In this document: piece by piece, positions 47,583-64,000 of the stretch
Layout of the letters: the number at the start of each line of letters is the position of its first letter
Position numbering within the stretch: the stretch's first letter is position 1
Virus record (IMG/VR): IMGVR_UViG_3300047678_000169
Location: 16,239 to 80,238 of that record
DNA: 64,000 nt
DNA from: a virus
Reading direction: 5' to 3' (one strand)
The notes under the pieces: generated by a model
What the model was told of the DNA's origin: nothing
The model's database searches: none
The model's input: only the letters and a program-made list of their open reading frames with translations
Made by a program: the position numbers and the translations under genes

Positions 47583-47656
47583 GGGTGCAGGTCCGGCGTC
47601 TGAATCCGTTGTTCTTGGTTATGAGCCAAACGAGTTACCACATACTCTACCCTGCA
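47583..47656 (-). tRNA. tRNA-fMet-like (CAU), degenerate T arm
   Basis: UGCAGGG..GGCU CAU AACC; T loop and 3' end decayed. Confidence 0.55.
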
Positions 47657-47664
47657 AAATAAAA

Positions 47665-47737
47665 TGGAGCGGCGTTCTTGGAACGACCAGAACCTTCGAC
47701 CTGGAAGGCCGACGTGCGAACAATACACCAACACCGC
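47665..47737 (-). tRNA. tRNA-Gly (UCC), aberrant T arm
   Basis: GCGGUGU/ACGCCGC-U-CCA; CU UCC AG loop. Confidence 0.6.
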
Positions 47738-47953
47738 ATAATTTGTGGACATGTTTATTACCTTTTACGGCGTATTCAATGACCACAATCAAAAATCGAT
47801 TTAACCTTTTACGTAAGGGGTTGTCTTCTCACCTAATGTTTTGGAGCTATTGAGACTCCGAACTTGGCGCTCCCTAAACTACTCGCCAGAGCAACTTTCA
47901 ATAATCCTACTGGCTTTCGCGGTGAGTTGAACTAAACCGACTTTCAAACTTTT

Positions 47954-47996
47954 AAAGAACTGTCTATAACTATGTCACAATGATACGAATTGTCAA
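47954..47996 (-). promoter_or_regulatory. Sigma70 promoter plus boxA-like element
   Basis: TTGACA-N16-CATAGT, then GACAGTTCTTTAAAA. Confidence 0.6.
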
Positions 47997-48120
47997 CATA
48001 TAATTAGTTTTAGAATTGGGGAATTTTTGTGATATCGGGAGTCCACTCCGACACTTATTCTTCGCCAGCCGTTCCACGCACAGTGGACAACCAGACTTGA
48101 AGACTTCGCTGAATCACAAA

Positions 48121-48211
48121 TGGCGGAAGACTGAGTATTCGAAACTCAACGGCTTTTAAACCGTCAGCCGACTTTCCAGGTCGGTGTTGCCCCCTGGCAA
48201 CTTTACTCTCC
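48121..48211 (-). tRNA. tRNA-Ser (GGA), atypical (6-bp D stem, weak acceptor)
   Basis: CCGAC CU GGA AA GUCGG, long V arm, G73-CCA. Confidence 0.65.
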
Positions 48212-48215
48212 AAAT

Positions 48216-48351
48216 TGGCGGAAATGATTGGATTTACCAACATGCGCACCAAACGTCTTTGGTGTTTAAACAGTATTCTCTTTGGATATTCCTGTCACAT
48301 CCACATCAACCGGATATAGCCTGACTCTTGCGAATCGTTGCTCACATTTCC
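48216..48351 (-). ncRNA. 136-nt tRNA-like RNA with Ser-type acceptor
   Basis: GGAAAUG/CAUUUCC-G-CCA; non-canonical interior. Confidence 0.55.
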
Positions 48352-48354
48352 ATA

Positions 48355-48445
48355 TGGCGGAAGGTAGAGGTCCTGACCCTCAACGCTTTTAAGTTCGTCC
48401 AACAGTTTTCGAAACTGTGTCAATGCCCTGATTGATTTATCTTCC
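48355..48445 (-). tRNA. tRNA-Ser (CGA), 8/4-type
   Basis: GGAAGAUA/UACCUUCC, 4-bp T stem GAGG/CCUC, ACAGU UU CGA AA ACUGU. Confidence 0.75.
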
Positions 48446-49078
48446 ATGTTCTATCTCTAAAATTTTCAAAGGATTTGGATAGTTGACTTCGTTTAAGTCA
48501 GACTTCTCTCCATATCCATCTATTCCGTTCATTTGTGCTAAATCTTTGATTCCTTGTAGGTGTAAGTGTGTAAACCACCCACCATTCTCATGTGGAGAGG
48601 CTAAAACACCAACAGGCGACCCTTTAAGATACTTCTGTCCAATAACAAGCTTTTCAGCTTTCAAATGAGCAAAAATTACAAGGCCATTTTCGGTTTCAAC
48701 AAGGACTCTATCTCCCCAACCTCCGTTTTGGTCTGTATCATGAAATATCTCTTTAACAATGAAATTCAAAGGACAATAAATTGATTTACCGGGCTTCAAG
48801 AAATTAACATCAACTCCGAGATGAATCGATTTCTTTGGGTTAAGATAACTTCCTCTCCAAAGGAAAGAGCGGTCTTCCATGTAGCCGCCATAACTGAAAT
48901 CTATTCTATTTAGGAACGATAGTTTGGCTAGCCACTCTTCACACCTATATGGATTGAGCAGTGGGTTTGGTTCAATGTTCTTGAACTCGACTCTTGCACA
49001 TTCATTTAAATCCAATTCTCCACATTCAACATGTGTGTCGTAATGTAACAATCCATTCATCGTGATATAATTCATCAC
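48437..49078 (-). CDS. M23-family metallopeptidase
   Basis: HLGVDV, FAHL, NGGWFTHLHLQ. Confidence 0.85.
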   Translation of the reverse strand: MMNYITMNGLLHYDTHVECGELDLNECARVEFKNIEPNPLLNPYRCEEWLAKLSFLNRIDFSYGGYMEDRSFLWRGSYLNPKKSIHLGVDVNFLKPGKSIYCPLNFIVKEIFHDTDQNGGWGDRVLVETENGLVIFAHLKAEKLVIGQKYLKGSPVGVLASPHENGGWFTHLHLQGIKDLAQMNGIDGYGEKSDLNEVNYPNPLKILEIEHGR

Positions 49079-49104
49079 TTATTAAGTATTGTCAATCACT
49101 AAAA

Positions 49105-49180
49105 TGGTAGGCCTGGAGGGAATCGAACCCCCATCCAAACGTTCGAAGCGTCTGTTTCTAATCCGTTGAATTACAAGCCC
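49105..49180 (-). tRNA. tRNA-Arg (UCG)
   Basis: Cloverleaf, CU UCG AA loop, CCA. Confidence 0.88.
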
Positions 49181-49408
49181 ACTAAAAGTTTTCTCAAATA
49201 ATACATAACATACAGAAGATGGCAGTTGCTTAGGCTGATTTAGTTCTGCTACCATGTATCTTTTCAGGGAGTCCCTCAATCCATAAGCGGTGGATAATAT
49301 AGCTCCAAGAGGCGCGGTCTAGTTGGCCGTGTTTGAGAAAAGGGCCCTCGCCCACGGGGACGGAGGGGGCCTAGCCGCGGGTGTGTATGTCCGAGTCTAG
49401 GGGATGAT

Positions 49409-49484
49409 TGGTGGGAAACCTCGGGCTCGAACCGAGAACCTTCGCTGTGTAAAAGCGCTGCGCTAACCATTGCGCCAGTCTCCC
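49409..49484 (-). tRNA. tRNA-Val (UAC)
   Basis: Cloverleaf, UU UAC AC loop, CCA. Confidence 0.9.
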
Positions 49485-49492
49485 AAATGCCG

Positions 49493-49933
49493 TTAGGCCA
49501 AAATTTTTCTTAGTTTCATACATTCAATACCATGATAGGATTTTTTCTCACCTGTGGGTTTAAAACCTTCCTTAACAAGATTAGCGTATGAATAAACGTT
49601 CTTCAATCCAACCCAAACATTGACCCTCGAAGCGTTCTTGGCTTCTTTCTTTACATGTTCAATTCTCTGTTTGATTAAAAGTCTTTGTAGTCCATTTCCT
49701 CTGTGCTTTTTCGTGACCACACAGAGTCTCAGTCCCCAAAATCCGTGATAACAGGTGATTCCACCAAATCCGACGATTTCATCATTGAACTTAGCAACAA
49801 ATATACGATGTAAAGACTTTTTAATCTCAGCCGCAGATAAGTGAGTGTATTCACTTTCGTTTGCTATTTTCTCAAGTGTAGGAAGAACTTCTTCCCATTT
49901 GCTTTTTTCTAATTTTTCAATGATGTATTTCAT
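49493..49933 (-). CDS. GNAT acetyltransferase
   Basis: IVGFG, VTKKHRGNGLQ, N..S..NL.K.GF. Confidence 0.85.
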   Translation of the reverse strand: MKYIIEKLEKSKWEEVLPTLEKIANESEYTHLSAAEIKKSLHRIFVAKFNDEIVGFGGITCYHGFWGLRLCVVTKKHRGNGLQRLLIKQRIEHVKKEAKNASRVNVWVGLKNVYSYANLVKEGFKPTGEKKSYHGIECMKLRKILA

Positions 49934-49937
49934 AAAT

Positions 49938-50021
49938 TGGTAGCGAGGGTGGGAGTCGAACCCACATTCCTTTCGGAGACTGATTTTGAGTCAGTTGTGT
50001 CTGCCATTCCACCACCCCGCC
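49938..50021 (-). tRNA. tRNA-Leu (CAA), canonical
   Basis: Long V-arm hairpin, CU CAA AA loop. Confidence 0.92.
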
Positions 50022-50025
50022 ATAA

Positions 50026-50208
50026 TTACTGTTTAAATTCCTTATTCCAGCGACTCAACATTTCAGTTGTAGCATCAGAAGCTTTCTTCTGAGTCCATTT
50101 GTCAACTTCTTTGTCGATTAGTTCTTTAGGATACATTCTACCACGCTGCTTCGCAGTATAGTGTTGGAATTTTCCTTTGACTACTGGTAATTTGTTTTCT
50201 TCTGTCAT
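50026..50208 (-). CDS. Small hypothetical protein
   Basis: 60-aa ORF filling an inter-tRNA gap. Confidence 0.55.
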   Translation of the reverse strand: MTEENKLPVVKGKFQHYTAKQRGRMYPKELIDKEVDKWTQKKASDATTEMLSRWNKEFKQ

Positions 50209-50292
50209 AAATTGGTGCTGTCTTTCTCGCCGTCACCGGTCTGAGGAACGGCGTTTCAATGCCTGCTCAGTGTCGTATTCGGTTTACGCTAG

Positions 50293-50378
50293 TGGTAGCC
50301 AAGGTGGGATTCGGACCCACAAGGACATCGCATTCTAAGTGCGGCGGTTCTTCCAATTTCCCTTTCGTCCACTTGGCC
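50293..50378 (-). tRNA. tRNA-Leu (UAG), non-canonical split-variable-arm form
   Basis: GGAC-GAAA insertion after U8; GUCC in the short variable region. Confidence 0.8.
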
Positions 50379-50386
50379 ATAAATTC

Positions 50387-50797
50387 TTAAAAAAGAGGCT
50401 TCTTTTTTTCTTCTTTGCCTTTTTTGATTTGTTCTTTTGTTGGTTTTGGAGCTTCTTTAGTTTTCCAAGCTAAATGTTGGTAAGCATATGCCAAATTGCA
50501 AATTGGGCAATCTTCCGAATCTTTTTCTCCATGTCTTGCTGGCTTTAAATCTTTTGTAACAGAGCCAAATCCAGCATTGCAACAATTGTTTCCACAACAA
50601 GGACAACGAACAAACATACATTGGCACAAACCACAATAGTCCCATGTGAACATGAAAACTCTTTTTTCTTTCCAGTCTTTGTGCCATCCATTTTTCTTAG
50701 AGCCAATTTCTTGCTCTCCACCTTTCATATAGGTTGGGTCAAAAATTTGCTTAAATGGTTTATATTTAAATTTTCGCATATAGCACATTGACTTCAA
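50387..50797 (-). CDS. Cys-rich Zn-binding hypothetical protein
   Basis: CGLC, CPCCGNNCC, CPIC. Confidence 0.65.
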   Translation of the reverse strand: MKSMCYMRKFKYKPFKQIFDPTYMKGGEQEIGSKKNGWHKDWKEKRVFMFTWDYCGLCQCMFVRCPCCGNNCCNAGFGSVTKDLKPARHGEKDSEDCPICNLAYAYQHLAWKTKEAPKPTKEQIKKGKEEKKKPLF

Positions 50798-51057
50798 TAC
50801 TGATTTTAGTCAAGATATAAAATAGACCCACTTTTTATTAATGTTGGTGGGAATCATTATTATCATTACCGTCTGTTACGACAAGTAGTGTTAACAATAA
50901 CAACACGATTGTCGCTTGTATCATAAAATTTTGAATCAGGCCCGTCTCAGTTGTGAACGCTCAAGAAGAGCGAACCTTTAACCTGTGGTCAGACTGAATC
51001 GCGTTTTTCAGCCCAAATATACGAATCTACACGTAAGCTGGTTCGGTCTAATTCAAA

Positions 51058-51136
51058 TGGTGGGAAGTCAGCGAATCGAACGCTGTTATTTCGCTCTTCA
51101 GGCGAACGCTGAAATGACCACACTAGCTCACTTCCC
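51058..51136 (-). tRNA. tRNA-Phe (GAA)
   Basis: UUCGC CU GAA GA GCGAA, CCA. Confidence 0.85.
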
Positions 51137-51719
51137 AATATCACGCCACATTGTTTCCAACGTGTTCAAGCATTCATTCACTGTTTTCCAGTCGATGTTG
51201 CTCTTTAAATTGTTTATTACCCAATTCTTTTGGCTTTTCGAACCAATTGGATAAACCCATCTCTTCTTTCCAGCAGATTCCCCTTGATAAACTGCGTTGG
51301 TTGCCTTGTAGATGGCTCCCGTGTGATGGCTTGAATCTGAATATGTTAAAATCACTTTTATTTCTGGAAATTTTGTTCCCACATAATCATTACACTTGGA
51401 TATTGAATACCAGCTAAATTTTTCTTGGAATCCTTTGGAAGAATAGCTTCATCATCAACCAAGAACAATCTTTTCAATTCAAGAATGTCTCTATTGGAAA
51501 CTTCAACACCATTTTTGAAAATTGCCTTGTAAGCCGTGAAGGCTATTGGAGAACCATAAATAACAGTTCCTACCATCACACCATTATAGAAGATACCCAT
51601 GTAAATCTTTGCCGCACTTGGGTAATCTCCAAGATAATGCTTCGTAACAAAGTCTTTCACAGAGTTTCTATCAACTTCCTTGAAAGAAACAGCCTGGGGT
51701 CTAAAAACTCATTAATCAT
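51128..51719 (-). pseudogene. Mom-like adenine-modification acetyltransferase with two frameshifts
   Basis: KHYL, GTVIYGSP, ELKRL, TYSD..HTGAIYKATN..YQG are spread over three frames. Confidence 0.75.
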
Positions 51720-51750
51720 GAGTATAAATATAACGAAATCGTATATAAAA

Positions 51751-51836
51751 TGGTAGCCGTGGTGGGATTCGAACCCACAGAGGATAAGACGTTTTAAGTG
51801 TCTCGGTTGTAGCCAATTTCCCTAATCCACACGGCC
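51751..51836 (-). tRNA. tRNA-Leu (UAA), non-canonical split-variable-arm form
   Basis: GGAU-UA insertion after U8; AUCC in the variable region. Confidence 0.8.
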
Positions 51837-51901
51837 AAAAATTATATTCTTCTTTTCTTCCATCCAGTTTCGATAGAAAGGGTTTTTGAAACTATTTTAA
51901 G

Positions 51902-51987
51902 TGGTGGGCATAAGAAGATTCGAACTTCCAAGGACTACGCATTTTGAATACGTCGCTTCTACCAATTTCGCTCTCGTCCACATGCCC
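51902..51987 (-). tRNA. tRNA-Leu (CAA), non-canonical split-variable-arm form
   Basis: GGAC-GAGA insertion after U8; GUCC in the variable region. Confidence 0.8.
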
Positions 51988-51992
51988 AAAAA

Positions 51993-52646
51993 TCAAAGAT
52001 GTTCCAATTTGGATTGAACTTTCTTAATGTCCATCTTATGAAGCTTGAAAAATGCTATCATCGAAGCTGGAGCCAAAAATGTCATGTATTGGTCAGGAAC
52101 AATTGATGTCAACTGAACCAATGCGTTCTTTAGAGCTTCATTCTGAATGAAGTTCGGTAAATTTTTGAGAAGAATGATTAGAACCATCAACACAATCGGC
52201 CAAATTCCTTTGGACATTAATGGATTGTAGCTCTTCACAATGGAACTGAATCTAGCATTGTGTATCTTCATCAATTTAACTGGAATTGATGGGTGTAAAA
52301 TCAAAATTTGCTTGAATACTTCTTGATTGAAAATTGCGACCTTCATTGGAGTTATCGAAACGATAGAAGCACTTCTTGGTGTTCCTGACAATAGCGACCC
52401 TTCTCCAATCAAATCATGAGGCTTGAGGATAATCTTGGCCGGTTTTCCAGCTTTCAATACTTGAGCCTTTCCCTCTAAAACGAGATACATTGAGTCTCCG
52501 GTGTCTCCTTCAACAATGAAGGTGACGCCAGTGGAATATTCTTTGATTTCACACAATGCCGCAACCTTTTTTAAGGTGGGATGTGGAACGTCTGAGAAAA
52601 GAAATCCTTTACTCAATTCGTCTGGAGTAGTGGTCAATTTTGGCAT
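51993..52646 (-). CDS. Cyclic-nucleotide-binding domain protein with C-terminal TM segments
   Basis: EGDTGDSMYLVLEG, GEGSLL...PRSAS phosphate-binding cassette; no HTH. Confidence 0.88.
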   Translation of the reverse strand: MPKLTTTPDELSKGFLFSDVPHPTLKKVAALCEIKEYSTGVTFIVEGDTGDSMYLVLEGKAQVLKAGKPAKIILKPHDLIGEGSLLSGTPRSASIVSITPMKVAIFNQEVFKQILILHPSIPVKLMKIHNARFSSIVKSYNPLMSKGIWPIVLMVLIILLKNLPNFIQNEALKNALVQLTSIVPDQYMTFLAPASMIAFFKLHKMDIKKVQSKLEHL

Positions 52647-52697
52647 ATGACATAAGTATAATATATGCTATTGTAACTTCAATCCATTTTAAAAAAT

Positions 52698-52844
52698 TGG
52701 TGAGAACGCTGGAATCGAACCAGTTTTTCAGCACGTTTCAAGACTTACAATGAGTTTCTTCAAGCCTGTTCGAATTATGAGTCCGAGGATTTCGAAGCGT
52801 TTCAAATTGCTATCGCTGATGTATTACCAACCTACTCCATTCTC
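52698..52844 (-). ncRNA. 147-nt tRNA-like RNA with an expanded anticodon arm containing a CAU stem-loop
   Basis: Intact acceptor, D and T arms and CCA; ~70 extra nt inside UCAGC/GCUGA. Confidence 0.65.
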
Positions 52845-52848
52845 AAAT

Positions 52849-52933
52849 TGGTGCGGATAGAGGGACTCGAACCCCCAAGCCTTTCGGCACATGCACCTCA
52901 AGCATGCGTGTCTACCAATTCCACCATATCCGC
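52849..52933 (-). tRNA. tRNA-Leu (GAG), canonical
   Basis: Cloverleaf with V arm. Confidence 0.93.
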
Positions 52934-52945
52934 AAAGAGAAACCG

Positions 52946-53167
52946 TTAGGCTTCCCAGTTAAACCTCATATCACCATAGCTTGATGGACAGTAGCAATAC
53001 TCGTCTCCATGCCCGCCATGACAACCGATGTAATCGTGGTCATACTTAACCTTGGAAAAATCAGTGACTCCTTGTTCAAGCAATTGCTTCAACACATCTG
53101 CCAAAGTCTGTCCTTCGGTCAAGTAAATTGCTCCACGCTTAATTTCCTTGATGTTTTTCTTTTTCAT
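52946..53167 (-). CDS. Small hypothetical protein
   Basis: GGAG RBS; 73 aa. Confidence 0.6.
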   Translation of the reverse strand: MKKKNIKEIKRGAIYLTEGQTLADVLKQLLEQGVTDFSKVKYDHDYIGCHGGHGDEYCYCPSSYGDMRFNWEA

Positions 53168-53211
53168 AGTTGTTTGTCTCCTTCTCTTACAATATTAGAG
53201 CGAGCATTCAA

Positions 53212-53391
53212 CTAATCAAATTCTTCTACAGTTGGAGCGTGTTTTTTAAATTTACGTCTCCTTCCGTTTATATGTCCACACACTTCACATTTAACTCCTG
53301 GAACTACCCAGTTTCCATCGCAGCCGTGACAGTATCCTCTACTACGTTTTGGTATCTGTGATTTTCTACGATTGATATGTGATGTTTTCAT
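53212..53391 (-). CDS. Small basic Zn-ribbon protein (start MKTSH)
   Basis: CHGC...CEVC; the longer track ORF would overlap tRNA-Thr. Confidence 0.55.
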   Translation of the reverse strand: MKTSHINRRKSQIPKRSRGYCHGCDGNWVVPGVKCEVCGHINGRRRKFKKHAPTVEEFD

Positions 53392-53394
53392 AAA

Positions 53395-53598: not shown

Positions 53599-53684
53599 TG
53601 GTGCAAAGGACTGGATTCGAACCAGCGAAGCCTTACGGCGAAAGCTTATGAAACTCCCTGTTTTAGCCACTTACCTACCCTTGC
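53599..53684 (-). tRNA. CAU-anticodon tRNA with a long variable arm (identity uncertain)
   Basis: UU CAU AA loop; V arm GCC-GUAA-GGC; A73. Confidence 0.75.
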
Positions 53685-53695
53685 GTTAAATTAAT

Positions 53696-54028
53696 CAGAG
53701 AAGCTATAGCCGATGTTCTGTCCAGAACCGAAGTCCCTGACCTTACATTTCTCTATGAGACGTAAATTTTGCCTCATTCCAAGCTTTTCGCCGGGATGCC
53801 CCTACCTTAGTATGCAAACGAGCGACTCACGCTCTCTACAATTTTTGGGTTACTGCGGATGATGTGGTATTAACGAACCGCTTGTGTCCGAGAACCATAG
53901 ACCCTCCTGATTTGGACTCAGGCACTATGGCGGTTGGATGATACAGCATTGTTCTCCCAGCTACGAGTCGAGCAGCATCGAACTTCCTCTATGGTTTTCT
54001 TTCCCACAGCGTAAGGTCGCTTACTCTG
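53696..54028 (-). ncRNA. rnpB: RNase P RNA
   Basis: GAGGAAGUUCGAUG (CR I) and ACAGAACAUCGGCUAUA (CR V) form P4; P2 GACCUUAC/GUAAGGUC; P1 CAGAG/CUCUG. Confidence 0.88.
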
Positions 54029-54032
54029 AAAA

Positions 54033-54124
54033 TGGTAGGCGTAGCTGGACTTGAACCAGCACTCGGCACCTATCAGGTGCGCCAGGTTTATAAAACCTGC
54101 GGTGCTACATTACACAATACGCCC
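54033..54124 (-). tRNA. tRNA-Ile (UAU) with a long variable arm
   Basis: CAGGU UU UAU AA ACCUG; V arm GCAC-CUGAUAG-GUGC. Confidence 0.8.
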
Positions 54125-54215: not shown

Positions 54216-54290
54216 TGGCTGCCCCCCAGCGAATCGAACGCTGATAAACCGAGTCAAAGTCGGCGATAATAACCGTTATATGAGAGAGCA
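54216..54290 (-). tRNA. tRNA-Gln (UUG)
   Basis: CU UUG AC loop, G73-CCA. Confidence 0.85.
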
Positions 54291-55088
54291 ATGTTTCTTA
54301 ATCTTCGGAACAACGATATGGTGTTCACGGCAAATTTCTTTTAAACGATTTGCACTTACACCATACAATTTTCCCAATTTTCGTAGAGAAGTTTTTGTTA
54401 CTTCGTCGGAAAGTTTTTTGAGGGAGTCGTCGTTCCATTTAATTTTTTGATTCCGTTTTTGTAGAGGAATGTTGACAACAAGTAACCCACAGATTTTTCT
54501 CAACTGGTGTTGGGTTATTCCGTGTTTTTTCTTAATGTCACTACAAGTTAACGTTAAACAATCTTGTCTAAATTCATCGGAGTCAAACCTATCTATGTAG
54601 ACTTTGTTCAACTTTAGATTAGAAGACTTCCCAGCGTATGTCGCTGTTTGTGAATGGCAATTTGGACACAAAAAACACAAATTTTCTATACGATTGTCTC
54701 TGTGGTTTCCGTTTTTATGTTCTAGCTGTAAAACTATAAGCTTGTTTCTCCATTCCGTTGTCAGTCCACATTCACATTTATACGGAACCAAATTAAACCT
54801 CAATATTAAGTTCTTTACTGTATTTGTGTTGGTATTACTATTCTCAACAAATACACTCTTACTCGCTTCATACAACGACCATTGACGATGTGTAAACTTT
54901 TTTCCCTTGTTTGATTTCAAATGCTCGGAATTTATTTTTAAAAATTCAATTCTTCTTTTAAGCGTCTTGTTATTAGCTCCCCTCGGTGGGAGGCCACATT
55001 TAATCAATACATCGGAATAAGATTTAGATTCCAGAACTATCTTTGTAAATTCTATATCACTTGTTTCGTAAATTCTACTGGTTTTCAT
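54276..55088 (-). CDS. HNH homing endonuclease
   Basis: CECG..W..LQLEHKNGNHRDNRIENLCFLCPNCHSQT; start MKTSR after TACTTAT. Confidence 0.88.
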   Translation of the reverse strand: MKTSRIYETSDIEFTKIVLESKSYSDVLIKCGLPPRGANNKTLKRRIEFLKINSEHLKSNKGKKFTHRQWSLYEASKSVFVENSNTNTNTVKNLILRFNLVPYKCECGLTTEWRNKLIVLQLEHKNGNHRDNRIENLCFLCPNCHSQTATYAGKSSNLKLNKVYIDRFDSDEFRQDCLTLTCSDIKKKHGITQHQLRKICGLLVVNIPLQKRNQKIKWNDDSLKKLSDEVTKTSLRKLGKLYGVSANRLKEICREHHIVVPKIKKHCSLI

Positions 55089-55162
55089 ACGCTTATAAGT
55101 ATGTAACGGAAGAACCAAAACGTAAATTATTTTACGCTTCCATTACACAATCGGGGAGCGTA

Positions 55163-56044: not shown

Positions 56045-56607
56045 TGGTGGACTAGTCGGTTATCACCCGAACACGCGATTTAGCTGGATTGCATTACTGG
56101 TTAATCGCCATCGTAGCCCGTAAATAGTGGACGTTCGGGACTCGAACCCGTATCTCTCTCCTCATCTGTCTTCACATCGGAAAGCGTGTTGCCATATCTT
56201 GGCGGAAGTTGCCTCTACACCAGACGCCCATAAATTAGTGACAAATCAGGCAGAATCGAACTGCCGCCCTATTTGATTCTGCACCAGCAGAAATAGCGGA
56301 ATCGAACCGCCCGAATCCTCATCGAGAGGATGTGCTACCATTACACCATGTTTTGTCAAAGTGGTGCGTTCGGAAGGAATCGAACCTTCGCCTGCTTACG
56401 CTGGTTACGCGTCGCCCTTCCAACATGGGCCTTGATACAAGTGCTTACCGCCTTCGAAGAGCAGAGTCACGTTCAACCATTTCCGCCACAAACGCAAATT
56501 GGTGAGTTACAGGAGGATTTGGCACCTCCACGAAGTTATTCCGCCGCTAACGGCAATGCTATTACCTTCGACCCCTTAAAGGCTGCGTCTTCTTCCGCCA
56601 TACACTC
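56045..56607 (-). ncRNA. Run of five aberrant tRNA-like RNAs (56045-56119, 56126-56229, 56237-56357, 56362-56495, 56500-56607)
   Basis: Each has paired ends and a T-arm-like hairpin but a non-canonical interior. Confidence 0.6.
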
Positions 56608-57631: not shown

Positions 57632-57722
57632 TGGCGGAAGATTGAGTATTCGAAACTCACCCGACTTTCATCGAGCAATCTGTTTAGCAAACAGTTCCAG
57701 CACCCTGACTGGTTAATCTTCC
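57632..57722 (-). tRNA. tRNA-Ser (GCU), 8/4-compatible
   Basis: GGAAGAUU/AAUCUUCC, AA linker, GAGU-UUCGAAU-ACUC. Confidence 0.78.
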
Positions 57723-57727: not shown

Positions 57728-57792
57728 TGGTGGTCAAAATAGGAGTCGAACCTAAAGGATTTCTCTTATACAAAGATTTCCGCCACTTGACC
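57728..57792 (-). ncRNA. 65-nt Leu-like mini-tRNA without an anticodon arm
   Basis: GGUCAAG/UUUGACC-A-CCA plus T arm. Confidence 0.55.
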
Positions 57793-57881: not shown

Positions 57882-57996
57882 TGGTGGACTAGGTGGGAAT
57901 CGAACCCACGTTTTCCGCTAGCGGAAGGACATTCCCACATCCCGTAATGGTGGAATGTATCGGAATCGAACCGATTATTTCTCCATAGACTAGCCC
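57882..57996 (-). ncRNA. Twin Ala-identity mini-tRNAs with swapped acceptor strands
   Basis: Two T arms and two ACCA ends; the acceptor strands pair only across the two units, both with G3.U70. Confidence 0.7.
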
Positions 57997-58001: not shown

Positions 58002-58151
58002 TGGAGCCGATGATGGGAGTCTAACCTAGCAGATGAATTAGCTAACTTTGTCCAACTAATCAACATGTATTTTCATTGGGAGCTACCATTCCTTTCTACG
58101 ACATTTTCTTCAACTTAGAAAGTTGATGCTCTATCCTTGAGCTACACCGGC
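58002..58151 (-). tRNA. 150-nt tRNA-Arg (UCU)-like RNA with a large variable-region domain
   Basis: Normal acceptor, D and anticodon arms; ~75-nt insert. Confidence 0.7.
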
Positions 58152-58305: not shown

Positions 58306-58412
58306 GAACCTGAGATTCATCACCGTTAACCGGCGCTAGGAATTGCCTCAGGCATGTTATCATCCGAAGGCCATCACTAAATTTTCATTAGGAGAGGACG
58401 TTTTTCGGAGAG

Positions 58413-58504
58413 TGGCGGAAGACTGAGTATTCGAAACTCAAGCGGGTTTAACACCGCTCTCACGACTTTCCAAGTCGGTCTAGAACCTATCTAGTTAATC
58501 TTCC
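58413..58504 (-). tRNA. tRNA-Ser (GGA), 8/4-compatible
   Basis: GGAAGAUU/AGUCUUCC, AA linker, 5-bp D stem. Confidence 0.78.
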
Positions 58505-58509
58505 AAAAG

Positions 58510-58587
58510 TGGCGGGATGTAAGAGGTTTGAACTCTCGACCTTCGCAGTGACAGTGCGACGCTCTAAACCAACTGAGCTAACACCCC
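58510..58587 (-). tRNA. tRNA-Asp (GUC)
   Basis: CU GUC AC loop, G73. Confidence 0.92.
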
Positions 58588-58672
58588 AAAATAGTTTAAC
58601 GTTCCGAAGTTTTAGTTCAGACGGCGTGATTTCTACACGCTTGATACAGCTCCGTTAATTGTCTGTATGGAA

Positions 58673-58749
58673 AGGAGTCCGTTGAGGGAATCGAACCCAC
58701 ATAACTGCCTTTTGCAGAGGCTGCCATAACCATTCTGGCCCACACGGAC
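58673..58749 (-). tRNA. tRNA-Cys (GCA), slightly atypical
   Basis: CU GCA AA loop, U73; ends in CCU. Confidence 0.72.
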
Positions 58750-58753
58750 GAAA

Positions 58754-59044
58754 TTATTTATCTACGTAGTTCATTTTGAACTCGTATTTCTTTTCAATCT
58801 TGGTTTCAGTCTTATCTGATTTGATTGATTCGATTTTATTTGATTGAATCATATCAACTCCTCCTTGAACACCAGTATAAATTCCAACTAAAAATAAAAT
58901 TGCGGTCATCATTTGTAGAACCACTTGAGTTTCTACTGTTTTGAAAGCCGCCAACATGAAGATGACATTTAAATTCAATAGAGCTACCCCAATGACCAAT
59001 GCTTTCTTACTATGACGAAGTTTTTGTCCGTGAGAAGGTGTCAT
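58754..59044 (-). CDS. 2-TM membrane protein (holin-like topology)
   Basis: Two hydrophobic helices and a charged C-terminal tail. Confidence 0.6.
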   Translation of the reverse strand: MTPSHGQKLRHSKKALVIGVALLNLNVIFMLAAFKTVETQVVLQMMTAILFLVGIYTGVQGGVDMIQSNKIESIKSDKTETKIEKKYEFKMNYVDK

Positions 59045-59163
59045 TTTACATCCTCCACATATTGAGGGACTGGAAATTCCTTACTCTTCTCAACAGGAAC
59101 CGTTTGGCATCCAACGGAGAACAATAAAGTCAAAAATAATAGTGTGTATAGTATCTTTTTCAT
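59041..59163 (-). CDS. 40-aa lipoprotein
   Basis: MKKILYTLLFLTLLFSVG-CQTVPVEKSKEFPVPQYVEDVK; ATGA overlap with the next gene. Confidence 0.65.
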   Translation of the reverse strand: MKKILYTLLFLTLLFSVGCQTVPVEKSKEFPVPQYVEDVK

Positions 59164-59164
59164 A

Positions 59165-59584
59165 TTAGAATCTAATCATCCAACAGCTCAATTTTTCTGA
59201 GCTTGAAAGTTTTGTTTCTTGTCCGTTTTGAGGTTCGATTGTCATTAATCCTTTTTCGGTCACTGCCATATTGATAGCATGACCACTTTTCATGGACTCA
59301 TTGTAATAGAAAAGTTCGCCTATAGCAATTCCTTCTTCTTTTCTTCCACTCTTAACGTGACACATTTGAGAAAAAACATAATAAGTTGATGCAAAGTTAT
59401 CACAATCCCATTTAGCTCTCCACTCACTTAGTTGATGTTCTTTCAACCAACCTTGATAAAATTCATAAAACTGACCTGTCAAATAACTCGTCGTAGGTCT
59501 AGCATAAGAACCATCACTGATAAACAGTTTTGCGTTCTTAAAGCCGGCCTCAATTATGAGTTTTTGAATGTCGTCTGTATTCAT
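59165..59584 (-). CDS. Transglutaminase/papain-like Cys peptidase domain protein
   Basis: WDCDNFA, GHAIN, IEPQ triad pattern. Confidence 0.7.
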   Translation of the reverse strand: MNTDDIQKLIIEAGFKNAKLFISDGSYARPTTSYLTGQFYEFYQGWLKEHQLSEWRAKWDCDNFASTYYVFSQMCHVKSGRKEEGIAIGELFYYNESMKSGHAINMAVTEKGLMTIEPQNGQETKLSSSEKLSCWMIRF

Positions 59585-59615
59585 TTGTTATAAATATAAT
59601 ACATACGAACGAAAA

Positions 59616-59691
59616 TGGTGCACAGTGAGGGACTCGAACCCCCGATGAACAGTATGTAACACTGCCGATTTAGCCGCTAATCTAACTATGC
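59616..59691 (-). tRNA. tRNA-Val (UAC)
   Basis: GU UAC AU loop, CCA. Confidence 0.82.
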
Positions 59692-59742
59692 GTAACTCCC
59701 CTTGTGAAAGACAAAGGGAGGTTGGTTTCTAACTTGTATTCG

Positions 59743-60099
59743 TTAAGCCTTGTCGGTTACATAAACCGGAAGGACAACCTTGACTGAGACAGCCTTTCCG
59801 TCACGAATTGCTGGAGTAAATCTCCACTGAGCAATCGCTTCGGACAGAACTGCCACGAGCTTTGGGTCAGCCTTAGAATCGGTCTTGAGACTTTCTACTA
59901 AGCCTGACGAATTTACCACGAACTCAAATGTCAATTTCGTATTTGCGAATTCGCTGTCAACAATTGGTGAAACTACTTTCACAACGGTTGGAACGGTTTC
60001 GCTTTTAGAAGCGAGTTTGATATAAGCCTCTTCACCAGTTGAAGCGTAAGCTGCAACAGCGGTGAGTAGACCAATGACTAGGATTTTTACTATTTTCAT
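59743..60099 (-). CDS. Secreted stand-alone TonB C-terminal domain protein
   Basis: Signal peptide; FVVNSSGLV...AIAQWRFTPAIRDGKAVSVKVVLP. Confidence 0.85.
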   Translation of the reverse strand: MKIVKILVIGLLTAVAAYASTGEEAYIKLASKSETVPTVVKVVSPIVDSEFANTKLTFEFVVNSSGLVESLKTDSKADPKLVAVLSEAIAQWRFTPAIRDGKAVSVKVVLPVYVTDKA

Positions 60100-60182
60100 A
60101 TGTTAGTTTCTGATTTATGGTTAATTCCATGTCTTTTGAACATGAACACATTCCTAATCATCGAGCCTCATAACTAACAAAA

Positions 60183-60256
60183 TGGCCGGGCCAGAGGGAT
60201 TCACACCCCCATCTTCACCGTAAATGGTGGAGTTCTAAATGTTAAACTACAGCCCG
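60183..60256 (-). tRNA. Degenerate tRNA (6-nt anticodon loop)
   Basis: Acceptor and CCA intact; no D-loop GG; altered T loop. Confidence 0.5.
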
Positions 60257-60260
60257 AAAA

Positions 60261-60336
60261 TGGTCAGTATGATAGGACTCGAACCTACATGTTCTCCTGT
60301 CCGAGAGGAGTCGCCAGCCTTTGGCACCACATACTG
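60261..60336 (-). tRNA. tRNA-Pro (CGG)
   Basis: C1-G72, CU CGG AC loop. Confidence 0.8.
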
Positions 60337-60350
60337 ATAAACTAAGAAAT

Positions 60351-60770
60351 AGGCTTTCGCTGTGGTTATCGACTTCCACTTCTGAGGCTTCAAATGCGAT
60401 GTGCGGGTTGCCTCCGTGTTACCAAGTAAGTCTACTTCCCCTATCCTTTATGATATTATGTCGTGTTCAACTCTTGTTGTCTGTTCGGCCCTGTCTTTCG
60501 ACTCCCCGACTCACGGTTTTTATGGTTGCCCATCGCATTGTTACGCGAAGAACCTACTAACGACCTTTACATATATTCTCAGTTACCTTGACTTACCATC
60601 ATACACTAAACGAAATGGGTGTAAGTAGAGGTCGTTAACTCTCTTGGTGAGGGGAATGACCCGTTCACAACACTTGTCAACTTACAAATTGTCAGAGACT
60701 TTTAAGTAATTAGGAGAGTCACTGTATCAACTCCAGTTCTTGTTTTTAATCGCACTGAACCACGGCGCCT
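60351..60770 (-). ncRNA. ~420-nt unidentified structured RNA
   Basis: Closing helix plus 8-9 bp internal long-range helices; no credible ORF. Confidence 0.6.
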
Positions 60771-60772
60771 TA

Positions 60773-60848
60773 TGGCTGCCTCGGCACGGTTCGAACGTGC
60801 GACCCGAAAATTAACAGTTTTCTGCTCTACCAACTGAGCTACGAGGCA
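60773..60848 (-). tRNA. tRNA-Asn (GUU)
   Basis: U1-A72, CU GUU AA loop, G73. Confidence 0.92.
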
Positions 60849-60874
60849 ATACTTAAACTCTTTCTTTGATAAAT

Positions 60875-60951
60875 TGGAGGGAAGGGGTGGATTTGAACCA
60901 CCGAATCTTTCGATTAACAATCGAGCGCTTTAACCGCTTAGCTACCGACCC
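60875..60951 (-). tRNA. tRNA-Asn (GUU), atypical acceptor
   Basis: UU GUU AA loop; mismatched acceptor, U73. Confidence 0.7.
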
Positions 60952-61105
60952 ACGAAAATTTATGCAACGTGTATTGTTCTGCGCCAGTGTTAAGGTGCAC
61001 CTGACCTGGTCGGAGACGTTTTACATTTTGCGGGAAAAACCGCTGCTACAGTCCTGTCGAACTGGGTCGTCACAAAGGTCAGCCGCTAAGCCAACCAAAT
61101 TAAAT

Positions 61106-61247
61106 TGGTAGAAACGATGGGAATCTCACCCTAGCCATGTTGTTGTCCGTATCAGACTTTAGTGCACTTATTTTCTGACGTAATCAACTCATTTGCGACA
61201 TATCGGCAGCGTAAGATGCTGCTGTTCTTTACTTAAACTACATTTCT
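61106..61247 (-). tRNA. 142-nt tRNA-Lys (CUU)-like RNA with a large variable-region domain
   Basis: GCAGC AU CUU AC GCUGC; insert shares motifs with 58002-58151. Confidence 0.65.
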
Positions 61248-61308
61248 ATAAAGTGGGCCAGATTTGTGTCGTCTTTCAGACAGGCTTGGCTGGCGGAGCC
61301 TCTCTTAG

Positions 61309-61385
61309 TGGTGGAACAGGTGGGACTCGAACCCACAACCTTGTCTTTAGGAAAGACCTGCGCTGTCCAGTTGCGCCACAATTCC
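61309..61385 (-). tRNA. tRNA-Arg (CCU)
   Basis: UU CCU AA loop, A20. Confidence 0.88.
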
Positions 61386-61391
61386 ATAAAC

Positions 61392-61476
61392 TGGCAGGAG
61401 AGGAGCGACTCGAACGCTCAATGTCTTACGACGGCAGTTTTGGAGACTGCTGCAATACCAATTATGCGACTCACCT
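61392..61476 (-). tRNA. tRNA-Trp (CCA) with a long variable arm
   Basis: CU CCA AA loop, G73, V arm GUC-GUAA-GAC. Confidence 0.82.
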
Positions 61477-61482
61477 ATAAAA

Positions 61483-62127
61483 TTATACTCTTCCTTTTCT
61501 GAATCCTCTTGGGAGCGAATCGGTTTTTAGAACTAACTTGCTAACAAGTCCGTTGGTAATCCAATGTTTTCCAAACGACGGATTTTTCTTACCGTCAAAC
61601 ATTCCTTGTTTTGCATCGCTCATTTTCTTTTTTGTTTCTTCTGAATGTTCTTTTCCTTGGAATGGATTTCCGTTTATAGACTGATATAACAGACTTCTAT
61701 TTGATAGTTTTTGAGTAAATTCTATTCTAAATTGTTCGTCGGTTTTATATTTATCCCACAATTTATTCGCCGCTGCCTTACCCATTTTTGTGTAGTGTTC
61801 TTTGGAACGATTTACTTTGTTTCCATTTTTTCCAGTTGAATTGATGTAATCATACCCACCATTTCCTCCTAATTTGATGTTGTATGTGTCATCTCTGGCA
61901 ATAAATTCTTCATCAACTATGTCGGTTTCTTTTTGGTTCATTTCTTCTTCCGTATTACACTCAAAAAGCAACTCTTTGACAAAGTGTTCTTTTCCATGTT
62001 TCTCTACTGCCCGACCAAGCAAAACTCCAGAGCCAAAATACTCATCGTCTTTGTTTTCAGTTTTGTGTTTTCCGACGTAAATTTTATTGTTCAGTTTATT
62101 GGTAATTTTGTAAATCAAGTAGTGCAT
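61483..62127 (-). CDS. Seg-like GIY-YIG homing endonuclease
   Basis: YLIYKITN..IYVGKH..YFGSG, YNIKLGG, NUMOD3 HSEETKKKMS. Confidence 0.9.
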   Translation of the reverse strand: MHYLIYKITNKLNNKIYVGKHKTENKDDEYFGSGVLLGRAVEKHGKEHFVKELLFECNTEEEMNQKETDIVDEEFIARDDTYNIKLGGNGGYDYINSTGKNGNKVNRSKEHYTKMGKAAANKLWDKYKTDEQFRIEFTQKLSNRSLLYQSINGNPFQGKEHSEETKKKMSDAKQGMFDGKKNPSFGKHWITNGLVSKLVLKTDSLPRGFRKGRV

Positions 62128-62181
62128 ACCAATAAGTATTAGTTCAATACTTCAAATCGAACCAACTTGGACTTATTATAA

Positions 62182-62268
62182 TGGGGTGATTAACGGGATT
62201 TGAACCCGCACGGATTTCTCCGCTAGATTCACAGTCTAGCGCGTCTAGCCAATTTCGCCATAACCACC
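62182..62268 (-). tRNA. tRNA-His (GUG) with a Leu-like D arm and long variable arm
   Basis: G-1/C73, CU GUG AA loop, V arm CGGA-GAAA-UCCG. Confidence 0.82.
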
Positions 62269-62273
62269 ATAAA

Positions 62274-62352
62274 TGGTCGGCCCGGTCAGATTTGAACTGA
62301 CATTATTCTTCGCCCCAAACGAAGCGCCATGACCAGATTAGGCGACGGACCG
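62274..62352 (-). tRNA. tRNA-Pro (UGG)
   Basis: UU UGG GG loop. Confidence 0.9.
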
Positions 62353-62467
62353 ATAAACTGTTCTAACACTACATACATATCATGAAGTGTCAATAAAATT
62401 GCGACGTGATAAGGTATTTCGTCACCACCAAGGGGCCACCCTCATTTCACCTTGTCAGGAATGGTAA

Positions 62468-63013
62468 TCAAAGTTGTTCTTTGAGTTTCGTAAATCTTTT
62501 ATAATTTCCGCCTTTTGGCGTTAATCCCACTTTGATGAGAGCCTGTCTTATTGACGACGAATTTTTTAGAGCTTCAATCGCTTCATTGTCAGTAACTCTT
62601 TTACAAGAACGTTTATTTCGACCTCTCCAAGTCGGAGTAATGCTATGACAGTTTGGACAAATTGCTATGTAATTTTCTCTCGTGTAGTTGTCGTGATTTC
62701 CGTCAACGTGGTCAAGTTCTAAAGCCAATCTGTGACCCAGCCACTCAGTCAATTTACACTTTCCACATGCTCCACCTTGTTCTTCTATACATCTATCTCT
62801 CTTCTTCCACAAAGTCAGAGAATCAAAGTCAGCTGACAATAACTTTTGTTTCCAAGTATCTTTTACTTTTTCTATTCTCTTGGTTTCGGTTTTTTGTCTT
62901 GACGATGCTATCTTTGTTTTGTATTCCAAATATTTCTTTGGGTCAGATTTTAGATTATCTAGCCAAGTATAATAACCACTTCTTATTTTATCTTTTGTTT
63001 CTTGAGTGTGCAT
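62468..63013 (-). CDS. HNH homing endonuclease
   Basis: CGKC..WLG..LELDHVDGNHDNYTREN..ICPNCHS. Confidence 0.88.
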   Translation of the reverse strand: MHTQETKDKIRSGYYTWLDNLKSDPKKYLEYKTKIASSRQKTETKRIEKVKDTWKQKLLSADFDSLTLWKKRDRCIEEQGGACGKCKLTEWLGHRLALELDHVDGNHDNYTRENYIAICPNCHSITPTWRGRNKRSCKRVTDNEAIEALKNSSSIRQALIKVGLTPKGGNYKRFTKLKEQL

Positions 63014-63076
63014 GTTAAACTATCATTTTCAGTTTCATATAAATATATGACAGTTAGATGAAAACACAAGAAAATA

Positions 63077-63160
63077 TGGTGGTGTCGGTGGGACTCGAAC
63101 CCACGATGTTTGTATTTCGGCTTAAAAGGCCGAACCAATCGCCGCTATGGGGACGACACC
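63077..63160 (-). tRNA. tRNA-Lys (UUU) with an extended variable region
   Basis: CU UUU AA loop; 12-nt V region. Confidence 0.8.
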
Positions 63161-63286
63161 ATATAAAATGGGCTCGTATCGCAGAGCACCGATGCCGTCA
63201 TCAGTAAGCGTCCGTCTTTCACGGAAGGAGAATCAGTTGGATTCTCCGGATTGGATTGTTCATTTGAACCCAACCTCAGTTGTAAT

Positions 63287-63373
63287 TGGTGCTCCGGGAG
63301 CGACTCGAACCCCCGTTGGTTATTACACATCGGCTTAAAAGGCTAAACTATTCGCCGCTATAGGAACCGAAGC
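63287..63373 (-). tRNA. tRNA-Lys (UUU) with an extended variable region
   Basis: CU UUU AA loop; 15-nt V region. Confidence 0.72.
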
Positions 63374-63384
63374 AAAATCTAAAA

Positions 63385-63459
63385 TGGTGGACCTGAAGGG
63401 AATCGAACCCTTACCTGTTGAATGCAAATCAACTGTGCTGCCATTATCACTACAAGCCC
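63385..63459 (-). tRNA. tRNA-Ala (UGC)
   Basis: G3.U70, UU UGC AU loop. Confidence 0.9.
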
Positions 63460-63956
63460 AAATATTTTTTATCCCATTCTTCAATCTTATAAAAGAAACA
63501 AACTTCTCAGCCATCTTGGCGGTAAGTGTGAAATTTGAGAATATTCTAAAAACGCATCCGCTTTAAACTTTCACCATCAAGACCCAAAAGAAAAAGAATA
63601 TAAATTGGATATTCGTAGTTGTTCTAATTTATCTTGGAAAACTCTACTATCAGAAGTTTCAAAATGTAGATTACTTTGTGCAAATTGTCATATAGAAATT
63701 CATCATCCAAACGGATATGAATCTTAAAAAATGTTTTGTCCTTCGACGTTATCCGACTTCATCGGAGCAGATATTTTCAAGTTACTGCGAGTTTTAAACC
63801 TTCTTGAATAAGGCGCTAACGGTTACTGAACAAATTGAAAAATTGGGATTATTTTGGTCGGCCCACGAAGGAATATTACTCTTCGCTTGTTGCCTGATTG
63901 TTTTCCCGAAGAATCGCACGTGTTGGACTCCTTTCGGGCGTCTGGCGATTACTATT

Positions 63957-64000
63957 TGGTGGTTGTGGTGGGACTCGAACCCACCTGAGCTTGCATGTCG
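63957..64000 (-). tRNA. tRNA, probably Val (GAC), cut by the window edge
   Basis: 3' half with T arm and CCA; GAC lies at the edge. Confidence 0.6.

Follow-up and report, generated by a model that had tools for sequence, protein, structure and literature searches.

Remodelled tRNAs and an RNase P-like RNA in the tRNA array of an uncultured phage

We analysed a 64,000-nucleotide (nt) stretch of viral DNA, called the window throughout, which is the final 64 kb of the 80,238-bp linear IMG/VR contig IMGVR_UViG_3300047678_000169 and carries a long array of transfer RNA (tRNA) genes with an RNA resembling that of ribonuclease P (RNase P) inside it. CheckV completeness of the contig is 29%, which implies a phage genome of ~270 kb. 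All tRNA-model matches of the whole 80-kb contig fall within window positions 47585-63459, all on the minus strand. The contig end cuts the 3' half of another tRNA at 63957-64000, so the array runs off the contig, and a transfer-messenger RNA (tmRNA) gene at 37723-38127 lies 10 kb downstream of the array. All array counts given here refer to the minus strand of 47583-64000.

47583..64000, minus strand: whole unidirectional tRNA array, read here as an operon; besides ~53 elements that are tRNAs or resemble them, it holds an RNase P-like RNA and at least 10 protein genes

An earlier note on this DNA had counted more than 40 tRNA or tRNA-like genes, roughly half of them deviant, and proposed that tRNA callers be compared with manual calls. 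ARAGORN called 33 tRNAs by default and 43 on the minus strand with relaxed settings, and the Rfam tRNA model RF00005 gave 35 matches at or above its gathering score (29 bits), among them matches of 131 and 147 nt, and four weaker ones. We then built a catalogue from the tool calls, a reading of the minus-strand gaps and a scan for 7-bp closure before NCCA. Of its 53 elements, 24 are canonical tRNAs and 16 are non-canonical tRNAs whose anticodon can still be read; we call the other 13, which are giant, mini, twin or anticodon-less, orphans. These orphans, like part of the non-canonical set, scored below the RF00005 cut-off or were not detected by it. The default caller thus found 33 of ~53 elements, missing about a third, and tRNA counts for large phages may be systematically low.

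The other anatomical claims of that note also held up. After correction of two boundaries, a 3' CCA is encoded in 49 of the 53 elements, and at least five of the six bases upstream are A or T in 43 of 53, the spacers being A/T-rich and 4-12 nt long. One module, made up of an A/T spacer, CCA, an acceptor strand and a T arm, came up over 24 times in a repeat finder. The scan for perfect closure (7 bp, then NCCA) gave 98 cases, compared to 36 +/- 7 in shuffled sequence. The closure scan picked out seven paired-end elements that are not tRNAs (61247-61106, 58151-58002, 57996-57882, 57792-57728, 56495-56362, 52844-52698 and 48351-48216), as well as all three 86-nt tRNA-Leu forms described below; three further elements are closed imperfectly, so that the estimate of about ten segments with paired ends and without an open reading frame (ORF) was a fair one. 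We then asked which elements combine a T arm, a paired acceptor and CCA with an anticodon loop of 7 nt that has U33; the 24 canonical tRNAs and 15 of the 16 non-canonical forms passed. The 13 orphans failed, for example by a 6-nt loop (60183-60256) or by having no anticodon (the twins). The observation of a remodelled tRNA array with an RNase P-like RNA is therefore confirmed.

Three classes of remodelled tRNA could be followed into related phages:

50293..50378, minus strand: tRNA-Leu(UAG), 86 nt; a long-range helix (GGAC/GUCC) replaces the variable-arm hairpin
51751..51836, minus strand: tRNA-Leu(UAA), 86 nt; same helix-X architecture (GGAU/AUCC)
51902..51987, minus strand: tRNA-Leu(CAA), 86 nt; same helix-X architecture
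57632..57722, minus strand: tRNA-Ser(GCU) of 8/4 (allo-tRNA-like) type, with 8-bp acceptor and 4-bp T stem; homologues in L007
58413..58504, minus strand: tRNA-Ser(GGA) of 8/4 type
48355..48445, minus strand: tRNA-Ser(CGA), 8/4-like; contains the stop codon of the upstream peptidase-like ORF
48121..48211, minus strand: 8/4-like copy of tRNA-Ser(GGA) with a weakened acceptor stem; possible pseudogene
54033..54124, minus strand: tRNA-Ile(UAU), 92 nt, with a long variable arm and GAU in its loop

The helix-X Leu tRNAs are without the Leu variable-arm hairpin. Instead, extra bases past U8-G9 pair with the short variable region. We found 11 members of this class in six contigs (three in the window, eight in five others), and across these sequences 97.8% of cells are paired and 13 of 21 pairs show compensatory change; the fourth pair of the extra helix is UA in six, CG in four and UG in one. 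These data suggest a new, covariation-supported tRNA-Leu architecture, which we consider notable. We also observed a second non-canonical Leu architecture in related phages, in which complete sets of 77-78-nt genes without a long variable arm occur (L002, L010, L011, L015 and G003; for example L011:2785-3973), unlike the 86-nt class of the window.

An 8-bp acceptor, a 4-bp T stem and a long variable arm can be fitted to each of the four Ser-like genes. Those at 57632-57722 and 58413-58504 have the acceptor GGAAGAUU/AAUCUUCC (or AGUCUUCC), the T stem GAGU/ACUC and G73; those at 48355-48445 and 48121-48211 are imperfect 8/4 forms. The acceptor and D stems of the 8/4 Ser tRNAs covary with two L007 copies. 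Passages of Mukai et al. 2017 (PMC5389517) describe 8/4 tRNA-Ser in tRNA clusters of uncultured phages. The long-arm tRNA-Ile(UAU) is present in three phages (window 54033-54124, L015:7464-7557 and L018:6793-6886), with compensatory change in 11 of 20 consensus pairs and the arm kept in all three. In each of them a 7-nt loop can be drawn on the arm, with GAU at the anticodon positions (CUGAUAG, UAGAUUU and UAGAUGU); this triplet is conserved among the three phages, and the arm stems differ. It is possible that the arm mimics the anticodon loop of the major tRNA-Ile.

One explanation of the whole deviant set is decay and recombination, in which pseudogenes and chimeras left by tandem duplication, unequal crossing-over and homing-endonuclease repair are harmless and tolerated. 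Since helix-X Leu, 8/4 Ser and long-arm Ile, like the RNase P-like RNA described below, keep their pairing by compensatory changes across phages, these three classes do not appear to be decaying. The earlier note had argued that the deviant forms are not simple decay and had suggested a structural comparison with related phages. That comparison upholds its view for the three classes and not for the orphans, of which no homologues were found in the 98 loci searched.

Further non-canonical tRNAs in the array carry long or enlarged variable regions:

53599..53684, minus strand: CAU tRNA (Met or Ile2), 86 nt, variable-arm hairpin GCC-GUAA-GGC
61392..61476, minus strand: tRNA-Trp, 85 nt, variable-arm hairpin GUC-GUAA-GAC
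62182..62267, minus strand: tRNA-His, 86 nt, variable-arm hairpin CGGA-GAAA-UCCG
63077..63373, minus strand: pair of tRNA-Lys(UUU) genes of 84 and 87 nt, the variable region enlarged in each; the acceptors differ between the two and are fully paired

The arms of the CAU, Trp and His tRNAs are short stems with GUAA or GAAA loops, as in the ordinary Leu tRNAs of the phage. A long-arm CAU tRNA is also present in L015, and long-arm Asn, Thr and Cys tRNAs are present in G003.

Next to the canonical set, the remodelled forms could serve a purpose other than decoding. It had been stated that deviant forms often sit beside canonical copies of the same isoacceptor, and a layer of decoys or scaffolds had been proposed on that ground, in which non-decoding elements absorb anticodon nucleases and tRNA-binding defences or act as scaffolds. 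The anticodon table did not support this premise. Only Leu(CAA), Ser(GCU) and Lys(CUU) occur in both canonical and deviant form, and these three duplicates are what remains in favour of the proposal on this point. Leu(UAG), Leu(UAA), Ser(GGA), Ser(CGA), Ile(UAU), CAU, Lys(UUU), Arg(UCU), Gly(UCC), Phe, Cys, Trp and His were seen only as non-canonical or giant forms, so that most non-canonical forms, which have a normal 7-nt anticodon loop, are sole visible copies. Their anticodons also fit the codons that the phage prefers. AGA, GGA, AAA, AUA, UUA and CUA, whose sole visible readers are non-canonical, are among its most used codons: in 59 ORFs of the window (15,256 codons), AGA makes up 52% of Arg, GGA 53% of Gly, AAA 58% of Lys and AUA 26% of Ile codons, and UUA plus UUG 53% of Leu codons. 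In relatives, too, non-canonical Leu, Thr and Cys tRNAs are the only copies; the relative G003 (89% complete) has five Leu tRNAs, all of 77-78 nt and without the long arm, and its Thr(UGU) and Cys tRNAs are present only as long-arm forms. Because the remodelled, anticodon-bearing forms are mostly sole visible copies, match favoured codons and follow the pattern of G003, the simplest reading is that they are the working tRNAs of the phage.

A tRNA with anticodon CUA, an amber suppressor, was seen in related phages (L001:10182-10256, L008:336-410 and L012:1812-1886). These phages also encode three Gln(UUG) genes, which hints at TAG recoding there. No suppressor tRNA was seen in the window.

Among the tRNAs lies a second kind of RNA gene:

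53696..54029, minus strand: compact RNase P-like RNA, 334 nt, between two tRNAs

The Rfam model of type B RNase P RNA (RF00011) matches 53702-54024 over model positions 1-365 with 42.7 bits (E 6.6e-9), below the gathering score of 97 bits, which none of 12 homologous viral loci reaches either. Adding an outer P1 (CAGAG/CTCTG) gives the boundaries 54029-53696, which puts its start 4 nt past the CCA of tRNA-Ile(UAU) and leaves 11 nt between its end and the CAU tRNA. The P4 strands AGAGGAAGTTCGATGCT and ACAGAACATCGGCTA and a P19-like hairpin are kept. The P4 strands of conserved regions (CR) I and V, AGAGGAAGUUCGAUG and ACAGAACAUCGGCUA, are both present, and all eight modelled P4 pairs are invariant and paired in nine of nine sequences. 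Little or no variation is seen in a J18/2-like stretch, AGAGAAAUG, or in the 3' ACAGAACAUCGGCUA, and the flanking helices covary. Across nine family members, 94.2% of cells pair, in comparison to 28-39% with slid partners, and compensatory change is found in 24 of 48 pairs (P1 5/8, P2 3/8, P3 4/5 and P5 1/4); a second P5 swap was read by eye in L044.

Further members of this P RNA family were sought in three collections, with the 17-nt 5' strand of P4 as the probe. In viral contigs it gave 15 matches, of which 12 were true homologues. All 12 lie inside tRNA arrays, most of them beside a tmRNA gene and two near a GOLLD RNA. Metagenome contigs gave 77 matches with nine true homologues, and 185,579 prokaryote genomes gave 33 matches with none. 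The remaining matches (3 of 15 viral, 68 of 77 metagenomic and all 33 prokaryotic) were rejected as chance, the 3' P4 strand being absent. Since homologues occur in viral and metagenome tRNA arrays and none in prokaryote genomes, the sequences place this RNA in a phage-borne P RNA family. The earlier claim that rnpB lies inside the array, and that the array has its own RNase P, is thus borne out as a family-conserved, covarying RNase P-like RNA between two tRNAs, albeit one below the gathering score. In the literature searched we found no paper describing a phage RNase P RNA, which is not proof of novelty.

The RNA departs from known forms in the specificity domain. Conserved regions II and III were not found in it, the Rfam alignment leaves the region unaligned, and ~117 unalignable bases stand in place of ~157 consensus positions. 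Across the family this region varies from ~10 to ~190 nt and whole RNAs from ~200 to ~370 nt. At the L15 position the alignment shows AAGGUAGGGGCA in the window and AAGGUUGGAGCA in relatives; in bacterial P RNA, the GGU of L15 pairs with the RCCA of the substrate. Within their otherwise unalignable specificity regions, the window RNA (53860-53885) and the L015 P RNA have a common hairpin with the loop GUCCAAA, the stem of which covaries (CUGA/UCAG versus CCGA/UCGG). A search for the protein gene rnpA (PF00825) in this contig and two relatives (G000, G002 and G003; two of the three are fragments and one relative is 89% complete) gave no match.

The RNA might then be an inactive relic, or have another role, with the host enzyme doing all processing. 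The low score, the reduced specificity domain, the members of only ~200 nt and the missing rnpA would all fit this. Against it stand the near-invariance of P4 and of the two conserved stretches between covarying helices, and the occurrence of the family only in phage and metagenome tRNA arrays. In addition, P RNAs cut down to the catalytic domain can be active, as in the Pyrobaculum type T RNA. We consider a relic very unlikely.

The elements that fail as decoders include the following (z, folding stability compared to dinucleotide shuffles):

58002..58151, minus strand: 'giant' tRNA-Arg(UCU), 150 nt; ~75-nt insert before an altered T arm; Rfam tRNA 36.2 bits
61106..61247, minus strand: 'giant' tRNA-Lys(CUU)-like element, 142 nt; insert motifs and altered T arm in common with 58002-58151, by eye
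57882..57996, minus strand: twin anticodon-less mini-elements with crosswise pairing of their acceptor strands; G3.U70, A73 and CCA in each stem; z -3.4
56045..56495, minus strand: four tRNA-like elements of irregular form in a row (one giant of 134 nt, one with two T arms, one of 106 nt and one of 75 nt with an Ala-type acceptor)
52698..52844, minus strand: acceptor-closed element, 147 nt, with T arm, CCA and an enlarged central domain
48216..48351, minus strand: acceptor-closed multi-hairpin, 136 nt, with Ser-like acceptor and G73-CCA; z -2.5
57728..57792, minus strand: mini tRNA-like element, 65 nt, with acceptor stem, T arm and CCA

A further orphan at 60183-60256 is a tRNA copy with a 6-nt anticodon loop. 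With the two boundaries corrected, 10 of the 13 orphans have a 3' CCA, and seven of those keep at least six of seven acceptor pairs. Unconstrained folding showed most orphans as acceptor-closed multi-hairpins. When 25 segments from orphans and spacers were run by nhmmer against 98 loci (0.68 Mb), the only similarity was to the tRNA module. The relative G004 has tRNA-model matches of 123 and 102 nt (L020:700-825 and L020:1748-1852) in which a long insert extends the anticodon arm or stands in its place; alignment with the window giants revealed no common insert, and the two sets are not homologous. The motif of the altered T arm of the giants had no match in viral contigs. Near kin of the phage were equally absent from the collections searched: the array had no megablast match among 50,697 GenBank phages, relatives of a neighbouring 1251-amino-acid protein were absent among the viral contigs searched, and the cyclic-nucleotide (cNMP)-binding protein of the array matched only itself among 5.8 billion proteins. 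The orphans thus have no close relative, among the collections searched, in which they could be tested. The only public runs listed with the stretch are two DNA runs from a moss metagenome, which may be its source; no RNA run is listed.

The proposal of further non-coding RNAs in the spacers fared less well. The Rfam scan that had been suggested returned the 35 tRNA matches and the RNase P-like RNA, and named no spacer at E<=5. Six segments are clearly structured (z -2.5 to -3.8). Five large ORF-free spacers have z of -0.6 to +0.6, and about half of the large spacers fold no better than shuffles. A candidate 420-nt structured RNA at 60337-60772 was no more stable than shuffles (z -0.46) and is not counted as an RNA; four other large spacers were rejected as structured RNAs for the same stability as shuffles. 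Side by side with these results, we observed GOLLD RNA (Rfam RF02032, 203-206 bits) in the tRNA arrays of two phages (L010:2255-2722 and L015:8285-8748), both of which have the same RNase P RNA family as the window. The GOLLD and ROOL models gave no window match even at E<=5.

For the orphans, both alternatives regain some ground. Decoys would explain why 13 elements are without a usable anticodon loop while mostly having a paired acceptor, T arm and CCA, and why the twins present two G3.U70/A73/CCA acceptor stems in a stable fold. Phage tRNAs are indeed known to counter tRNA-targeting defences (PMC10264068, PMC11464382, PMC11555353; context in PMC12445682). The lack of detectable orphan homologues in the 98 loci speaks against decoys and for debris. 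Debris is further suggested by three homing endonuclease genes in the array, by the repeated acceptor-plus-T-arm modules, by the two giants with a common internal module in unrelated tRNA bodies, by twins that resemble a crossover product, by several copies with mismatched stems or with CUA or CCU for CCA, and by the five spacers that fold like shuffles and have no Rfam match. Neutral decay should however erode both the CCA ends and the acceptor pairs that many orphans keep. We consider it unlikely that the deviant elements form a decoy or scaffold layer, and distinctly unlikely that they are debris as a whole. Instead, the orphans may be a mixture, some being stable tRNA-derived RNAs like species 1 and 2 of phage T4 and others debris of duplication or endonuclease recombination. 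The CCA of most orphans and the paired acceptor of about half weakly favour stable tRNA-derived RNAs.

The layout of the array bears on how these RNAs would be made. Every array element is on the same strand, and at least 10 protein genes, which the earlier note did not mention, lie inside. They encode M23-peptidase-like, GNAT acetyltransferase, cyclic-nucleotide-binding, beta-helix and TonB_C-domain proteins, two HNH and one GIY-YIG homing endonucleases and several small ORFs:

47552..47582, minus strand: intrinsic terminator-like hairpin of 14 pairs with a T run, directly after the last tRNA-like element
54276..55118, minus strand: HNH homing endonuclease gene; stop codon within tRNA-Gln(UUG)
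61483..62127, minus strand: GIY-YIG/NUMOD3 homing endonuclease gene, inside the array
62468..63013, minus strand: second HNH endonuclease gene, inside the array
49493..49933, minus strand: GNAT acetyltransferase gene; starts 4 nt past one tRNA and ends 8 nt short of the next
51993..52646, minus strand: encodes a protein with a cyclic-nucleotide-binding domain; inside the array

Inside the array, no minus-strand terminator was convincing. With a single strand, short A/T spacers and a sole terminator downstream, the array looks like one transcription unit, and this indirect evidence of layout agrees with its earlier description as polycistronic. Two protein genes terminate within the following tRNA: the stop TAA of the peptidase-like ORF forms bases 7-9 of tRNA-Ser(CGA) (window 48437-48445), and that of the HNH ORF lies in the D arm of tRNA-Gln(UUG) (window 54276-54290). 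Excision of these tRNAs would leave both messenger RNAs (mRNAs) without a stop codon, in a phage with its own tmRNA.

Two apparent gaps and the end of the array gave separate observations. The 614-nt gap at 51137-51750 holds two adjacent minus-strand ORFs (100 and 84 amino acids) that overlap in different frames and may be one gene split by a frameshift. The gap at 52934-53394 is not an ORF-free RNA, because two small genes lie there, one of them for a CxxC...CxxC zinc-ribbon-like peptide. The last element before the terminator (47583-47656) is a weak CAU tRNA-like sequence (22.7 bits), with the 3' end ACC instead of CCA and continuous with the terminator stem.

From the observed anatomy, conservation and covariation we infer how transcription, processing, aminoacylation and nuclease evasion might proceed. 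Transcription of the array would run from right to left and yield a single long transcript or a few of them. RNase P would make the 5' end at each tRNA-shaped element, through the phage P RNA and probably the host holoenzyme too; the phage RNA has a kept catalytic core and a GGU-containing L15-like stretch that would suit CCA-encoding substrates. Since CCA is encoded, the 3' ends would need only to be trimmed back to it within the A/U-rich spacers. The same cuts would free the embedded protein genes as mRNAs, as in tRNA punctuation. The 16 anticodon-bearing non-canonical tRNAs would be working decoders on alternative architectures under selection, and host nucleases that attack tRNAs may cleave such remodelled shapes poorly. 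We consider it probable, with moderate confidence, that the array is a jumbo-phage tRNA operon of this kind, in which one or a few long transcripts are cut at tRNA-shaped elements to give a near-complete decoder set owned by the phage.

Several observations weigh against this operon reading. The contig end cuts the array, and the missing part could hold canonical copies of 'sole' isoacceptors; a canonical Arg(UCU) is present in relatives. Comparators are few and some are near-identical, so that the covariation counts amount to ~5-6 independent lineages. Some copies look damaged, namely the Ser copy at 48121-48211, the T stem of the Lys copy at 63287-63373 and the 6-nt loop at 60183-60256. Promoter-like sites are not enriched in the array (42 versus 36.9 +/- 6.2, in a scan that is itself uninformative). 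The P RNA falls far short of its gathering score and is without most of its specificity domain; with no rnpA found in this contig or the two relatives, its activity would therefore need a host protein or the RNA alone.

A more far-reaching possibility, which we put forward tentatively and regard as doubtful, is a translation kit private to the phage, with decoders reshaped to get past host nucleases and perhaps past processing enzymes, a matching ribozyme and new identity rules. The reduced specificity domain of the ribozyme would then accept remodelled shapes. Further, the GAU of the extra arm could recruit isoleucyl-tRNA synthetase to a tRNA-Ile(UAU) that is otherwise poorly charged, and the anticodon-less G3.U70 acceptors of the twins could be charged by alanyl-tRNA synthetase or titrate a host factor.

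Phage tRNA arrays are usually seen as codon supplements or as spares against host nucleases that cut tRNAs. Here, classes of tRNA with a rebuilt cloverleaf appear to be kept by selection in the window phage and in related uncultured phages. If the remodelled tRNAs decode, then synthetases, RNase P, EF-Tu and the ribosome accept a wider range of tRNA shapes, and these tRNAs are natural leads for orthogonal tRNA design. A phage-encoded RNase P RNA centred on the catalytic domain (~200 nt in relatives) would be a compact natural ribozyme, and would show that large phages take over tRNA maturation besides supply.

The closest known systems resemble the array in part. In comparison to the type B RNase P RNA of Bacillus subtilis type (RF00011), the window RNA shares P1-P5, the P4 pseudoknot and the P19-like hairpin, and a GGUAGGGG stretch and the 3' ACAGAACAU..GGCU motif also align to the model. 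It differs in scoring less than half of the gathering score and in its variant P4 sequence (AAGUUCGAUG), and the family differs in a reduced, length-variable specificity domain and in being encoded by phages within tRNA arrays, with the partner protein gene not found. Minimal P RNAs, such as Pyrobaculum type T and bacterial forms of Mycoplasma size, are alike in a shrunken or lost specificity domain and a kept catalytic domain, and differ from the phage family in lineage and setting.

The T4 cluster combines polycistronic tRNAs with the stable, non-decoding species 1 and 2 RNAs (rnaC and rnaD), which have tRNA-like ends and are matured by RNase P. The window array is alike in being a polycistronic-looking tRNA cluster with tRNA-like non-decoding elements, known here from sequence. 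T4 has eight tRNAs and uses host RNase P, whereas in the window ~53 elements are accompanied by protein genes and a P RNA of the phage's own, and many of the putative decoders are remodelled. As in mitochondrial tRNA punctuation, protein genes lie a few bases from tRNAs or overlap them, with two stop codons inside the next tRNA; the window differs in belonging to a bacterial virus, and punctuation there would follow from layout alone.

The four Ser-like genes of the window resemble the 8/4 tRNA-Ser of Mukai et al. 2017 (PMC5389517), where irregular (8/4) tRNA-Ser and tRNA-His and 'polycistrons of irregular tRNAs' are described. The window tRNA-His differs from the irregular tRNAs described in those passages, being 7/5 with a long arm, and the same passages do not mention helix-X Leu, long-arm class I tRNAs, giants or twins. 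Phage tRNAs that escape defences (PMC10264068), including T5 tRNA-Lys against PARIS (PMC11464382) and tRNAs in retron evasion (PMC11555353), are alike in forming a large set that could sustain translation once host tRNAs have been cleaved. The published escapes involve changes of the anticodon loop, whereas the window, as read from its sequence, has architectural changes with extra helices and arms. In conclusion, the array belongs to a known kind, the phage tRNA operon, and what is notable in it is the P RNA family, the helix-X Leu tRNAs and the long-arm class I tRNAs.

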